Assembly: GCF_056746865.1 (NCBI RefSeq)
Contig: NZ_CM163382.1
Length of the DNA: 64,000 nucleotides
Direction: 5' to 3' (one strand)
Of this stretch, positions 48,601 to 54,600 are shown piece by piece (position 1 is the first letter of the stretch; each line of letters starts with the position of its first letter). Position numbers: made by a program.

Positions 48601-51600
48601 AATCAACGATGGTGCTCTGACGGGTTCGAGTTCCGCTGTGATAACGGAGAAAAACTGCGAGTCACGTTCGCGCTGGACTGCTGTGACCGTGAGGCACTGC
48701 ACTGGGCAGTCACTACGGGCGGCTTCGACAGTGAAACAGTACAGGACGTAATGCTGGGAGCGGTGGAACGCCGCTTCGGCAACGAGCTTCCGGCGTCTCC
48801 AGTAGAGTGGCTGACGGATAATGGTTCATGCTACCGGGCTAATGAAACACGGCAGTTTGCCCGGATGTTGGGGCTTGAACCGAAGAACACGGCGGTGCGG
48901 AGTCCGGAGAGTAACGGCATAGCAGAGAGCTTCGTGAAAACGATAAAGCGTGACTACATCAGTATCATGCCTAAACCAGACGGGTTAACGGCAGCAAAGA
49001 ACCTTGCAGAGGCGTTCGAGCATTATAACGAATGGCATCCGCATAGTGCACTGGGTTATCGCTCGCCACGGGAATATCTACGGCAGCGGGCCAGTAATGG
49101 GTTAAGTGATAACAGGTGTCTGGAAATATAGGGGCAAATCCAGAAATTTATGGCAGGAATCAGGTATTCCACCTTTGGACTACTGCACGATAGAGCGAGC
49201 ATCAAAATTATTAAATTGTGAAATTGATGATATATGGCATTGGAAAGATAGACTACATATAGACTTTTATGTCTATGCTGACTTTCTTGATTTCATTGAA
49301 GCTGATGCCACCATCCACTTCAAAAAAGATGCTGATTTTATAACTGATTTATTACTTATGTACCCAGAAGAAGTAAGGTTTACATTTCCTTTTCTTATTA
49401 CCAGCGCAAGCAACGAAGTTTATATCCCAGCATCTGAAAGCGGTGCTTATGAGCTATTTTATGCACATAAACCACTGACAGTTGAAGACAGAGACAATAA
49501 AAATGTTTTTGAACAAATTGGCAAAAACTCTTTTATTGTAAGAAAATCAATTGCATGTGGATTGTTGCGTGTACGCGGTAGTACAAAACGACATTATCAT
49601 TCACAAGAATGTGGAGAGCCATATGTGCGACTTGAAGCAACATTTGATTGTGATCTATATAAATTCAAAATGCAAAGTTCCCAGATTCACCTGAGTAGCC
49701 TGTCAGATAAAAACATTTATATAACAAAGGCTGATTTAGAATACCTTCACGACGCAAAGGTTAATGGAAGTTTTGACGCAGCTAAGAGCAAAAAACGATA
49801 CGAAATGGCGGTAGAACAGGAACTAATACCTGAAATAAAAAATAGCAACCATAATGCCGAGAGACATGCTGAAAACAGGGAAAAACTTTTCAAATCAGCA
49901 ATATATCTTTTGTCAAAGTATCCTGATGAATGCCGTGGCAAAAAGAAAGAAATAAGCCCTGAGAAGTGGCGGGATTGCATAGTGGCTCATAAAGACGAAA
50001 TTCCACCGTTAGCAATCACAAATGAAGATGTGATTTTGAGACACTTACGTGCTGCCGCCAACGGTAAGGGGTAGAGTAGCTAACTATTCAGGCACAGTAT
50101 CATTACTGTGCCTTTTTATTGTTCATATATGTACAGATACTTCCTCCCGTAACGAAGCAACAACTATCGCTAAGAGGTTACGGGAAGCATGAACACCGAC
50201 ACTATTCCTACAAAAGGCTATATCAGACGCTTCCGCCTGGCTGAATTGCTGGGCGTTAGTGTATCCACCATCGACCGTAAAGTAAGAAACGGTTCACTAC
50301 CACGTCCGGTAAAGCTGGGAGAAAAAATAACTGCGTTTGATGCGGTTGAGATTCACAACTGGCTGGCAGAACGCCGCGGGAAGGTGGTCTGATGGAAAAG
50401 AAAAACCGCCCATTACAGGCGGCTAATTCAGATATTCGCGTATCTGATGTTACGCCCCTTACAAAATCCCTTCAAGCACCAAAGCGCACACCGAAAAAGC
50501 ATCGTGCCAGAGTCTATATGCTGCGTACTGGTATAGAGGGATGGACAGAAAATGACATTCTTCGCTACTGCCGTCTGTCTTCTGGTCGTAACTATGCAAC
50601 AGAGTTAGAACGCCAGCTTGGAATCACTCTGGAGCGTATCGACGAAAAGAATCCTGATGGTATCGGAACACACCTTCGCTACCGTTTCTCCTGCCGTGGT
50701 GATGTTCTGAAAGTGATCACTCATGTTAACCATCTTGCGAGCATAAATGATCACAACGGACTTTCTCAGCAGGAAATTGCCGACATTCTGAAACTCTACC
50801 CGGACGCGTTTAACGCCGCCTAACGGAGACTGAAAATGAACATCGAAAAAAGCAGATTAATTTCTGAGGCCGCCCCTCATCTGAACGCCTCTCTGGGCAC
50901 AATTAACGGTAATGAATTTGCCGCAATTGTCCCGGTTATTCCTGGTCATATCGGTGGGCGTGAAACCAATATTGTTAGCGCAAAAGCGTTACACAAAGCG
51001 TTGGGCGTGGGAAAAGACTTCTCTACATGGATCACTGATCGCATCTCTGAATATGACTTCACCATTGGGCACGATTACTCAGTCCATAAAACAATTTCCC
51101 CAAATTTGGGGAAAAGCCCGAATGGCGCGGCTTACAGCAAGATTAAGCAGTCTGGCAGACCCGGCAAAGACTATCTGTTAAGTGTCGGAATGGCGAAAGA
51201 ACTGGCAATGATCGAACGCAATGATCAGGGTCGCGCTATCCGTCGTTATTTCATCCAGTGCGAGGAAGAATTACAGCGTAGCGTGCCTGAAATCGCCGCC
51301 CGCTATCGTCGCCAGCTAAAAGCCCGTATCAGTGCCGCAAACAACTTTAAGCCAATGTGCGATGCGCTGAATATGGCCCGTGCCGAGCAGGGGAAAACGA
51401 CGCAGCAACACCACTACACAAACGAGAGCAATATGATTTCTCGTATCGTTCTTGGTGGGCTAACTGCTAAGCAGTGGGCGCGGATAAATGGCTATTCTGG
51501 CGAACCTCGCGACCATATGAACGCAGAACAACTTGAGCACCTCTCATATCTCGAAAGCACCAATATCACGTTAATTGATATGGGCATGGAATATGAGCAG

Positions 51601-54600
51601 CGCAAAGGAGAACTCACCCGCCTGTCGCAACGCTGGCTCGCCAAGCGTCTGGAGGCGGTCCATGTTTAAGCCGACAGGAACACCACAACCTCAAAAACGC
51701 TACAAAGATGCCCACGGAGCACTCGTTACTGTCGAAAGCGTGTCTCACAACCGAGTGACGTTTTATCGCGACGGGTATCAATCGCCATGCGTACAACCGC
51801 TGGCGCGCTTCATGAAGGAGTTCGCGGAGGTTAACAAATGCTAACCGTCCAGAAGAAGATATTTTCACTGACTGCTATGTTGCAAAAATCCAGCAATATG
51901 ACAGCAAAGTCTGGCATTAATACAGCAGATACAAGCAAAGCTTATCATTTTATGGTGGTAGGAGCGGATGCCTTAACTATGTCAGAAATTACGGTCGATG
52001 GTGTTAGCGTTGAGAAGGTCAGCGGCTGCGCCAGAGAATTTCTGGTCGTAGATGGCTTTCTCTTCTCGCGTAGTGACTCCACAAAAACCTTCGTCCATGC
52101 GCGTGACGTTAACGAAATGAGCGCGATGTACTGTGCATCTGGTGCTTCCAATAGCGAGTTTTCGGAGTCCATAAAAAAGAGCTTGCCGTTATGCGGCAAC
52201 ACGGTTTATGGTTATAAGGCACCTCATAAAACGGGTGCCGGGATTGGCCTCCCGCTGGAGTTATCGGCGATACATGACGCGCCAGCGTCTTTTTTTGTAT
52301 CGGCGCACACGCACACCTTATCAATGGTGGGCTGTATGGGGCTACCTTCGGGTAGGCTGGTTTCCGATAACGCCAGTAAGGCCAACTCCGTACAGTCCAC
52401 CGCCAGCAAGATTGGTCTCTTCTGCGGTGGTTATAACAAGCCAACGTTATCGGAGGATGCCACATGCTGGCTACTACCCCTACCCAAAAACCGCAATTTA
52501 TCTGGATTATCGCCGCAGTTCGCCGCGATTGCCCGACAATTACCGCCAAAATTCATCATATTGCTGCCGAGTCTGAACGTGATGCTCGCCGTTCTCTGGT
52601 GCGCGATCACGTCTGCTTTTTTGCTGGTCGTATCCGCATGGAGGTGGCTCATGATTAAAACCTACGATGTGCATATGGATCCCCTCGAACGCACAAGCCA
52701 GATCATCACACTGACAGAAGTGATTAACGACATTCTGGTGAGCAACTCTCCCTCACGAGACGAAAGACTGAAGGCGTTACTCGCGATATTGGATCTCGCC
52801 GTTCGTGACGTTCATTTCCTGCTGGAAGGTGGCGAAATGCCAGTAAAAACGGGGGCAACCAATGAATAACTCAATTAATACCCCTCGCCTTACGTCCGCA
52901 CTTCAATTAATCGAGCAAGCAGCGGCTGTCCTGGTTGCTGTCAGTCTTTCGGCTGAAGAAATGGACGCTACTGATGTCGTGGATGCGATTAAAGCGTGCT
53001 CATCTTTGGTTAACGATGCCCGTGCAGAGCTGGTAATTCTTGGGGGTGAAAAATGAATATCAACTTAATTTATCGTCATCCGTGTGAGCTGGAAATTGAA
53101 TCATTGCTGAGCCGTGAAGAGCCATATCCAGACACATTCACTCTTGCAGATCGCACGACTGAACGGCTTACCAGAGCGCGCACAGGTCTGGTTCATGTGA
53201 TGAATGAGATTCTTCCATCGGTGGGAGGGGAACAGGCGACAGTAATCACTAGCTGGCTACAAAAAGTTACCTCTCTGATAGATATCAGTTTAATCGATGC
53301 GGAGAGTGCGAAATGACCAACATCCAGCTCATTGAAGCGCAATGTCGCATCGAACAGGTTCAGACTGTTTTAGGGTTCTGGCTTGAAGGGGCCAGCCCCA
53401 GCAACAGAGACAAGTTAATGATTGGCGCGGTTATGTCACTGCTCAATGGCGTACCAGAAGCTATTCAGGAAGCAGACGAATTGTTGGGCAAATATGAGTT
53501 ACAGAATCATTCAGGCGAGGCGAAACATGAATAATTTCTTAACGTTCCATGCAGAAGCAACGCCTGACGGCGTAAACATCATGCACCGCAGCAACGATGG
53601 CATGACAGAACGCGTTGAGGCCGTCTCATATATTGATGCCGTAAATCGTCTGGATGACGGGGATTATGACGATAAACCAGATGAAGGTATGTCAATACAT
53701 CTCGCTATTGCCGATGGCGGCAACCAGGGATATTTCGATTACACATCACAGCATAACGTCATTATGTGGAGATGGCTGATCGCAACAGTATTCATGCTGG
53801 AAATGAGAGAGGAAAACGGCACTGTCAGCATCATTGATGATACTGGCAATCCTTCCGAAGTGGCTGTTTATTCCAACGGCATCGTCGCCATGCCGCTGTA
53901 TCCAGTAGCAGAGCGCCTCGCTATGGCAAACAACATTGAGGGCGCGATGATAGAACGTTTTGGCATCGAGTCTGGCACAGAACGCGCCATCATTTTCTAC
54001 AGAGCCATGATGGATGTGGAACAAGGAGCACTGACTCCATTTGGTCGTGAAACGCTTGCTGAACTTCACAACAGCTTTATAGCTGAACTGAATGAAAACG
54101 GCATGCCAGCGGAACCAGTGACGCACTAAGGATGGAGCCATGATTACTAAAAATTTCCGACTGAATGCGCTGGCAAATAAGTATGCGTCGGCACTGTATA
54201 ACCACATTACCTCCACCAGCGGCGGGGACTATTTCATGATTGATGCGGACGGAGAGGCCGTCCGTGTGGAAATCGTCAATGGAGTAAAAGGCGTTCGCAG
54301 CCTGATCGATAGTTACGCACTGGCAGCCATGAAAGTGTTCTACCCGCAGTGGGAAACCGTGGGGATCGAGCTTCTTGATCGTTGCGTCACTAAGGACGGA
54401 TTGACTGACGCCGGGCGTGAGATATGGCAAAGCATGGTTAATGACATGGGCGCAACTGTAGCGGGAGGTTCTCATGCGTGAAAATGCAGAAATGGCGCTT
54501 AGCTCCGCAATCGGAGAGCAGGTGGCAAAGATTGCTGGTGCTGTGTGGATTCATAACCTTCATTCTACTGGTGAAGAGAAAATGGCAATTCAGACGCCAG

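Follow-up and report, generated by a model that had tools for sequence, protein, structure and literature searches.

Analysis of a 64,000-nt stretch of DNA (assembly GCF_056746865.1, contig NZ_CM163382.1; hereafter the window, whose coordinates are used throughout) indicated that the block between alpA and a replication operon (50392–52869) is very probably the conserved regulatory ("Bro"/immunity) zone of an EcCIMP1-like Gram-negative phage-inducible chromosomal island (PICI) with a P4-type RNA immunity switch. This level of confidence refers to the regulatory zone, the RNA switch and an eta-like read-through mechanism taken jointly, as one reading. An earlier note on this sequence had described the block as unassigned cargo with four frames following alpA (143, 277, 60 and 343 aa), and the list of open reading frames (ORFs) places these four frames exactly there. 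The kind of switch is already known (P4 immunity region, P1 immI, Bro zone of PICIs) and occurs here with a slightly different arrangement of frames; the island family has also been described before (EcCIMP1). The RNA family matches, covariation at four sites, Kil homology, conservation of an open frame, identification of frames under protein selection and synteny with EcCIMP1 presented below were all obtained by computation in this study.

A predicted RNA immunity cassette inside the 343-aa frame

The largest of the four frames overlaps the following features (SD, Shine-Dalgarno sequence):

51838–52869, + strand: eta-like read-through ORF, 343 aa, annotated "ash family protein"; its SD and ATG overlap the stop codon of the DUF4222 gene; kept open
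52183–52212, + strand: predicted PLE-like promoter (−35 TTGCCG at 52183–52188, 18-nt spacer, −10 TATGGT at 52207–52212; predicted start about 52219)
52219–52295, + strand: isrK-type leader RNA (Rfam isrK), with a1 at 52244–52250 and b1 at 52260–52267, ending in an intrinsic terminator
52320–52407, + strand: C4/CI-type antisense RNA (Rfam C4), with b' at 52364–52372 (CCGAUAACG) and a' at 52379–52385 (AGGCCAA)
52412–52458, + strand: downstream targets a2 (52412–52418) and b2 (52445–52453) of the kil mRNA; b2 runs into the SD GGAGGA (52453–52458)
52464–52658, + strand: kil, an Icd-like cell-division-inhibitor gene, 64 aa (NCBIfam phage_ICD_like), with the SD GGAGGA 5 nt before its ATG
52651–52869, + strand: orf72, with its own SD GGAGG (52641–52645); it overlaps the kil stop codon and is in frame with, and the C-terminal part of, the 343-aa ORF

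The leader matched the Rfam family isrK (RF01394) with 64.3 bits (gathering score 50), and the antisense RNA matched C4 (RF01695) over the full length of the model (1–87) with 77.1 bits (gathering score 45). The same isrK and C4 pair was found in the immunity region of authentic P4 (NC_001609). A terminator scan located the leader terminator in a hairpin at 52276–52289 followed by seven T residues (52290–52296). The Rfam c4-a1b1 model gave no match in the window; in P4 it reached 44.1 bits against the 46.7 required.

Alignment of four E. coli copies revealed three alleles with matched changes in the leader, in loop 2 of C4 and in the SD region of kil. This pattern was examined further in 79 IMG/VR loci that contain a relative of Kil; their 61 unique upstream regions comprise 23 loop alleles. 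At least 8 contiguous pairs could be formed between the C4 loop and the kil SD region in 100% of cognate vs 9% of non-cognate combinations, and at least 7 pairs between the C4 loop and the leader in 97% vs 8%. In an alignment of 54 sequences, the long closing stem and two hairpins of C4 (27 pairs) were paired in 100% of cases, with 14 pairs changed on both sides. When these stems were taken together with b':b2 and a':a2, 98.3% of positions were paired (31–49% with the partner slid), 28 of 43 pairs had changed on both sides, and none of 500 shuffles reached the observed score. Compensatory changes were detected in 8 of the 9 pairs of b':b2 and 6 of the 7 pairs of a':a2. For the upstream targets, b':b1 was 97.9% paired (7 of 8 pairs compensatory) and a':a1 100% paired, compared to 26–34% when slid. 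The recognition elements are thus complementary to both upstream and downstream targets, and b2 reaches the ribosome-binding site of kil, 5 nt before the ATG at 52464. The cassette has the geometry of P1 c4 (a'b' with a1b1 and a2b2) and of P4 (seqA/seqB/seqC).

The region 52183–52212 is a putative constitutive promoter, judging from its conservation: the TTG is invariant, TATGGT occurs in 56 of 60 sequences, and the spacer is 18 nt in 59 of 59, its own sequence being variable. In most relatives (e.g. L003, position 10955–10995), an additional segment of about 39 nt with a TATAAT box is located between the leader terminator and C4, and may be a second promoter feeding C4.

kil and orf72

The ORF at 52464–52658 matched NCBIfam phage_ICD_like (3.7e-20; 71.7 bits, cut-off 25), which identifies the first gene behind the RNAs as one of the Kil/Icd type, and its product aligned as a clear homolog of P4 Kil. 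The ratio of non-synonymous to synonymous differences (pN/pS) was 0.17 for kil and 1.64 for the overlapping 343-aa frame in one comparison, and 0.47 and 1.22, respectively, in a second, which used equal-length kil sequences without re-alignment and gives rough values. The substitutions lie at third positions of kil codons, i.e. at second positions of the longer frame. Therefore, in this overlap kil is the frame under protein selection.

For orf72, pN/pS was 0.38, and it is annotated as a separate gene in strain G749. Its dismissal as a spurious ORF was considered and rejected on the strength of its own SD and this ratio, though few substitutions were available. Of the two alternative small frames listed in the earlier note, the first is a real gene with a strong SD; the second begins at 52651 and not at 52652, and is in frame with the 343-aa ORF. 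A deviating kil locus was observed in L074 (IMG/VR; position 3773–4230), where a 22-nt duplication at the kil start results in two tblastn starts and an eta frame that stops at the kil stop codon. This duplication probably arose by a recent rearrangement or during assembly.

The 343-aa frame stays open although its amino-acid sequence is not conserved

One long ORF of 119–499 aa, running through the promoter, leader and C4, was present in all 81 loci analyzed (73 unique). In every locus it starts with an SD and ATG, mostly overlapping the preceding stop codon. Over the 285 nt before kil, this frame was open in 54 of 55 unique sequences, vs 2/55 and 0/55 for the other two frames (Fisher p~1e-27, kinship uncorrected), and only 1.9% of shuffled window sequences had it open. 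Allelic indels (38+1, −3 and −3 nt) leave the frame intact. The possibility that it is a purely spurious ORF lying over RNA genes was rejected on these grounds (an open frame in relatives, with frame-preserving indels); the frame is more than a product of chance.

The encoded amino acids tell a different story. The N-terminal parts are non-homologous between lineages, and within the lineage of the window the differences are spread flatly over the codon positions (104/97/124), with a pN/pS of 0.60. Amino-acid constraint is absent for the 343-aa frame and present for kil, orf72, DUF4222 and AntA. The product is probably unimportant as a polypeptide, and what is selected is probably the openness of the frame.

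The only Pfam match of the frame is Phage_ASH (PF10554; 39 bits, cut-off 26), spanning aa 124–220 (nt 52207–52497). Both in the window and in P4, the residues concerned are the translated −10 box, leader, C4 and kil leader, and membership in PF10554 therefore says nothing about protein function. Translation of the −35 and −10 boxes yields the shared "KKGL...VYGY" motif. On P4 (L004, position 8330–8704), PF10554 covers Eta aa 37–161, from the −10 box of PLE to the first kil codons; the long superseded "cI gene product" coding sequence (CDS) of P4 and the full eta ORF match the model over the same elements. P4 epsilon matches PF25738 and not PF10554, which is nevertheless listed as the epsilon profile in a detector of P4-like satellites (PMC8628076). 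Thus, the Pfam Ash family, used for naming by the annotation pipeline PGAP, is a model of a translated regulatory RNA locus. The earlier note had remarked on a hydrophobic segment and an unusual composition of the frame. The former (aa 248–266; nt 52579–52635) lies wholly within the kil overlap and is kil read in the +1 frame; the latter is accounted for by the two RNA genes, promoter and terminator located inside, all of which had gone unnoticed there.

The 343-aa ORF is an analogue of P4 eta: it is a long ORF that starts upstream of an internal promoter, is coupled to the preceding gene and passes through the RNA region. It departs from P4 in that kil is not its in-frame C-terminal part, the nested in-frame gene being orf72. 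The window and 47 of the 73 unique relatives have eta in the +1 frame relative to kil, whereas kil is in frame with eta in P4 and 26 unique relatives. The +1 relation is due to a spacer between SD and ATG that is 1 nt shorter (GGAGGnTGCCAC-ATG). In this class, eta runs through all of kil and ends with orf72, its stop codon overlapping the next start. No +1 stop was found in any of the 38 unique kil sequences of this class, vs at least one in 16 of 25 in the in-frame class (Fisher p 6e-9); 19% of kil codon shuffles were open in the +1 frame.

Gene organization of the block and the replication operon

The cassette is embedded in a coupled operon composed of the following genes:

50189–50392, + strand: alpA, AlpA/HTH_17 regulator (Pfam Phage_AlpA, 2e-8; PHROG excisionase/regulator); opens the coupled operon and is the counterpart of P4 vis
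50392–50823, + strand: orf143, conserved 143-aa protein (homologs, AlphaFold (AF2) model and weak winged-helix matches are given below)
50836–51669, + strand: AntA/AntB-type anti-repressor-like protein of the Bro network, 277 aa (Pfam AntA, PHROG)
51662–51844, + strand: DUF4222 small protein, 60 aa (Pfam DUF4222, 6e-25; pN/pS 0.10)
52862–57183, + strand: replication operon of six small ORFs followed by a primase-helicase gene (54829–57183; DUF5906 primase in RefSeq), with overlapping junctions

The junctions overlap or nearly abut throughout, so the coupling reported in the earlier note, including that of the 343-aa frame at both ends, holds. alpA and orf143 meet in TGATG; a gap of 12 nt, with GGAG ahead of the AntA gene, separates the latter from orf143; the AntA and DUF4222 genes overlap by 8 nt, and the DUF4222 gene and the 343-aa frame by 7 nt. 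The 343-aa frame is closed by ATGAATAA at its junction with the next gene, and the chain of stop/start overlaps continues through six more small ORFs to the primase-helicase gene. The coupled replication operon (52862–57183) is presumed to be the regulated output of the switch. A generic sigma-70 scan revealed no clear promoter ahead of alpA.

The 277-aa protein contains an AntA domain (PF08346; aa 47–129; 1e-21; 77.6 bits, well above the membership cut-off of 27) and matches the PHROG anti-repressor Ant (1e-37). Its pN/pS of 0.23 indicates purifying selection. Judging from its domain, it is antirepressor-like, as the earlier note had supposed. Its C-terminal half (aa 165–266) matches the PADLOC candidate family PDC-S22 (9.7e-11) and PHROG 2657, "transcriptional regulator".

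Homology searches and structure prediction, both proposed in the earlier note, allowed the AntA, DUF4222 and Icd-like proteins to be named, and gave weak winged-helix matches for orf143. The latter has 611 full-length homologs (143–145 aa) across Enterobacterales, which carry no family name. Its AF2 model (pLDDT 75.7) has the topology H-H-H-E-E-H-H, and the top Foldseek matches are MarR/MepR/RTP winged helices (weak, E~0.1); the Pfam match to HTH_91 is also weak (0.018), and no match was found among PDB sequences. The model suggests, with low certainty, that orf143 probably encodes a winged-helix DNA-binding protein. Searches of PHROGs and NCBIfam yielded nothing for orf143, orf72, orf64 or orf87.

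The island and its relatives

Among 5426 complete E. coli genomes, 1191 contained the segment, and 459 of these carried 80% or more of it. Full copies of the island are bordered by yicC on one side and yicG on the other, and no tRNA genes were found near it. In these copies, a variable gene follows the integrase; next come alpA, the 143-aa gene, antA/antB, DUF4222, "ash family protein", Icd-like, small ORFs and primase, and then DUF2824, DNA-ejection proteins, lytic transglycosylase and PerC. The order from alpA through the 143-aa gene, AntA, DUF4222 and ash/eta to the Icd-like gene is kept in EcCIMP1 and in hundreds of E. coli genomes. Gram-negative PICIs are built of four zones, Integration, Bro, Replication and Late (PMC10111431), and the same layout was found here: int and alpA co-oriented inward, then Bro-type genes, primase and late genes, within a size of about 10–25 kb. 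Because the gene order matches this layout as well as EcCIMP1, the block is core regulatory machinery and not the cargo suggested in the earlier note, whose placing of it in a satellite-type island between alpA and a replication operon proved correct.

The P22-like phage Kapi1 excises and transduces EcCIMP1, an E. coli PICI whose master regulator, alpA, is induced by the helper and needed for both excision and transfer (PMC11773190). The experimental demonstration of induction, excision and packaging by a helper phage concerns this relative only (PMC11773190). Identity to EcCIMP1 is 94.6% over positions 50382–55853 and 98.9% over 58515–64000. Similarity is lost inside the primase gene and regained in the late zone (gap 55853–58515), and the primase types differ (DUF5906 primase-helicase in the window vs TOPRIM+DUF927 in EcCIMP1). 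This sequence comparison suggests that the replication module has been swapped. Encoded in the late zone (59098–64000) are DUF2824, a protein of 225 aa, a DNA-ejection protein of the P22 type and the beginning of a large lytic-transglycosylase protein. Ejection proteins of its own are unusual for a satellite and fit with a P22-like helper.

Between int and alpA, an IS2/IS3-family element (47814–49140; orfA 47858–48268, orfB 48226–49131) is inserted about 15 codons into a 322-aa gene behind int. This gene is uninterrupted in strain M160133; in the window, the ORF 49106–50074 begins with a GTG inside the end of the IS. Its G+C content is 37–40%, vs about 50% around it, and a family search with it produced a single, very weak match (PADLOC PDC-S31; E 0.002). 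Strain G749 carries a different gene in this position. The int-alpA slot, and not the block 50392–52869, looks like the variable cargo position of the island. An Rfam int-alpA RNA motif (47686–47752; 60.6 bits, threshold 35.8) was identified directly 3' of the integrase gene. On the chromosomal side, outside the island, the Hfq-binding sRNA STnc490 (44357–44480, − strand) was found with 146 bits.

Proposed mechanism of immunity and read-through

Promoter activity, RNA processing, control of termination and shielding by translation are taken here from the biology of P4 and P1, whose type of immunity is marked by a constitutive promoter before the leader, maturation of the RNA by RNase P and antisense-dependent (Rho) termination. 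In the uninduced state, the internal constitutive promoter (52183–52212) would start an untranslated isrK-type leader. Most of these transcripts would stop at the leader terminator or be processed to a stable C4/CI-type RNA of about 88 nt, whose b' and a' would pair with b1 and a1 of the leader and with a2 and b2 upstream of kil. Pairing at b2 would cover the kil SD, blocking kil translation and leading to premature termination, leaving kil silent together with the replication genes coupled to it, as far as the primase; this would constitute the immunity of the satellite. The earlier note had supposed interference or immunity functions: the function found is immunity, in the form of the satellite's own RNA control of the replication operon (P4/P1 type), and not helper-phage interference.

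Upon induction of the alpA promoter by a helper phage, a long transcript would be made and translated without a break through alpA, orf143, AntA, DUF4222 and the 343-aa eta-like ORF. Ribosomes crossing the leader and C4 would keep the terminator from forming, Rho from loading and the antisense RNA from pairing, and transcription would then reach the replication operon despite immunity. By analogy with P4, read-through is probably protected from immunity in this way, through translation of the alpA transcript that the helper induces; trans-activation of the IsrK type, as in Gifsy-1 (PMC4825925), may be an added layer.

For the +1 class, it is conceivable, although we consider it doubtful, that the read-through is translated across the immunity RNAs and kil without Kil being made, ending as an Eta-orf72 fusion, with selection keeping the +1 frame free of stop codons.

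Alternative explanations

Could the 343-aa ORF encode a functional "Ash family" protein that acts as a polypeptide, the RNA matches being incidental? The Phage_ASH score exceeds its cut-off, PGAP calls a CDS, the frame is conserved open, and eta is treated as a Bro-network gene in PMC10111431. However, the Pfam match sits exactly on the −10 box, leader, terminator, C4 and kil leader; conservation within this stretch is explained by RNA covariation, and outside it the lineages are non-homologous. With pN/pS values of 0.6–1.6, flat codon-position profiles, a hydrophobic segment that is kil in the +1 frame and an intrinsic terminator inside the ORF, a functional Ash protein appears very improbable. 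We likewise give little credence to the view that the long frame is a meaningless by-product of a stop-poor, GC-rich structured RNA region, in which only the RNAs, kil and orf72 are real and the 343-aa CDS is an artefact. The inconsistency of RefSeq (the region is a CDS in one genome but "pseudogene" plus Icd-like elsewhere), the lack of amino-acid constraint on eta and a second frame that is also open across the RNA region in the window (122-aa ORF, 52208–52576) would be compatible with it. A by-product would not be expected to favour one specific frame as strongly as found above (54/55 vs 2/55 and 0/55; the Fisher value takes no account of kinship), nor would its openness be expected to reach about 350 nt upstream of the RNAs, to a coupled SD and ATG, across non-homologous N-termini. 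The +1 frame of kil is also free of stops in 38/38 unique sequences of the +1 class, compared to 9/25 of the in-frame class and 19% of shuffles of kil codons, which points in the same direction.

A Gifsy-1-like positive switch, in which a short IsrK RNA acting in trans opens an inactive long transcript, instead of or beside P4-type immunity, has a modest chance of being correct but is on the whole unlikely. It is consistent with the leader matching Rfam isrK above threshold and with the Gifsy-1 precedent, where IsrK activates orf45-anrP translation, the nucleotides and not the amino acids of orf45 are conserved, and an RNA of about 80 nt is processed from orf45 (PMC4825925), a layout resembling the leader and C4 found here. 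On the other hand, the covarying contacts found here join the C4 loops with the leader or the kil SD, i.e. they follow the repressive geometry of P1/P4 with b2 occluding the SD, and P4 carries the same isrK-matching leader, where it is the target (seqA) of the repressor RNA (PMC10111431). The notion that the block is accessory cargo for anti-phage defence or helper interference proteins draws on the PDC-S22 match of the C-terminal half of AntA (1e-10) and on the ability of AntA-type proteins to act on phage repressors. It is improbable given that gene order and content are those of the conserved core of the island family, and that the variable slot of the island lies between int and alpA (the 322-aa gene here, another gene in G749). 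PADLOC detected no established defence system, only matches to candidate families (the AntA C-terminus) and very weak ones (the 322-aa and orf64 proteins), and defence cargo was dropped from consideration on this result.

Several observations weigh against an immunity zone with a P4-type switch and eta-like read-through. The sampled sequences are related (they form 21 clusters at 90% identity), and the counts can therefore not be taken as independent events. The generic promoter scan passed over 52183–52212, which matches the consensus at just 8 of 12 positions. The window lacks the segment of about 39 nt with the TATAAT box (its site being between 52316 and 52317), as do L001, L002, L009, L048 and L078, and the supply of C4 would therefore depend on read-through of the leader terminator. 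Eta is out of frame with kil, and the P4 principle that translation of the kil region prevents termination is thus carried over by analogy. Promoter activity, the C4 RNA species, termination and translation of the long ORF are likewise predicted from sequence and from analogy with P4 and P1.

Comparison with known systems

One of the closest known systems is the P4 immunity region (PLE, seqA, cI RNA/seqB, seqC and nested eta/kil, with vis before and the alpha primase operon after it). According to the summary of Forti et al. (1999) given in PMC10111431, P4 eta has its start ahead of the constitutive promoter, with translational coupling to the alpA homolog; as described there, it is translated from the upstream late promoter only, and its translation prevents termination. 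Common to both elements are (i) an isrK-type leader and a C4-type RNA in the same order, (ii) a homologous Kil, (iii) a promoter layout with an 18-nt spacer, (iv) complementarity at the leader and the kil SD, (v) a coupled long ORF beginning upstream of the promoter and (vi) a primase operon downstream. However, the recognition core is GATAAC here and TGTGAA in P4, which suggests that the two are presumably heteroimmune. Moreover, three extra genes (orf143, AntA and DUF4222) are located between the alpA homolog and eta, and eta, being +1 relative to kil, passes through the whole of kil in another frame, its final part being orf72 rather than Kil. The late zone is P22-like and in full islands (G749, EcCIMP1) contains DUF2824, ejection proteins and lytic transglycosylase; neither for the full G749 island nor for EcCIMP1 does RefSeq annotate any psu, delta or sid genes, no dedicated HMM search for them having been made.

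With P1/P7 immI (c4 a'/b', targets a1b1 and a2b2, icd, ant), the cassette shares a C4 family RNA, two recognition elements with two targets each, a downstream b2 covering the ribosome-binding site of an icd-like gene, and allelic recognition sequences, as in P1 vs P7. It differs in that the output is a replication operon and not an antirepressor, the AntA-like gene lies upstream and not downstream of the cassette, and a long overlapping ORF is present. EcCIMP1 has an identical gene order from alpA to the late zone and the same +1 arrangement of eta. The differences concern the integrase and attachment site (yicC/yicG for the window island, tRNA-Thr near proA for EcCIMP1), alpA, the C-terminal part of the primase and the immunity allele. 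The EcCIMP1 paper names the "Ash family protein", the RNAs not being analyzed there (PMC11773190).

The block also conforms to the organization of Gram-negative PICIs and HE-PICIs: Integration (int, alpA), Bro, Replication (DUF5906 primase) and Late (captured phage late genes) (PMC10111431). Their Bro zone contains AntA-type genes and eta, with CI/seqA homologs located inside Bro genes and found using the Rfam C4 and isrK models (PMC10111431); the relation between the eta and kil frames, the allele diversity and the pattern of selection measured here go beyond that account. Finally, the isrK-orf45-anrP region of Gifsy-1 in Salmonella (PMC4825925) resembles the cassette in having an isrK-family leader with its own terminator and read-through, a downstream short ORF kept as nucleotides and not as amino acids, and a processed RNA of about 80 nt. 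There, however, the short RNA activates translation and the output is the antirepressor AnrP, whereas here the covarying contacts indicate repression by C4 and the output is kil and the replication genes.

Consequences for annotation and biology

The coding arrangement, which the earlier note had left open, is truly layered and can be considered settled: a promoter, two RNAs, kil, orf72 and a read-through ORF, and not one odd protein. The "ash family protein" calls in RefSeq (CDS in some genomes, pseudogene in others) describe a translated RNA locus, and the use of PF10554 as a proxy for P4 epsilon is an annotation problem. With GATAAC as its immunity type, the island is predicted to be heteroimmune to EcCIMP1 (TTGTAC) and to at least some fifteen further recognition cores.

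Specific to this island are the GATAAC allele, the +1 arrangement of eta, an open frame with unconstrained amino acids and the recognition of PF10554 as a translated RNA locus. If the +1 variant functions as envisaged above, it would uncouple escape from immunity (replication on) from production of the cell-division inhibitor, and would represent selection for translation as such over about 340 codons, including an out-of-frame overlap of 65 codons. In its broader outline, the biology is the well-studied regulation of P4 and P1 extended to an abundant family of E. coli PICIs.

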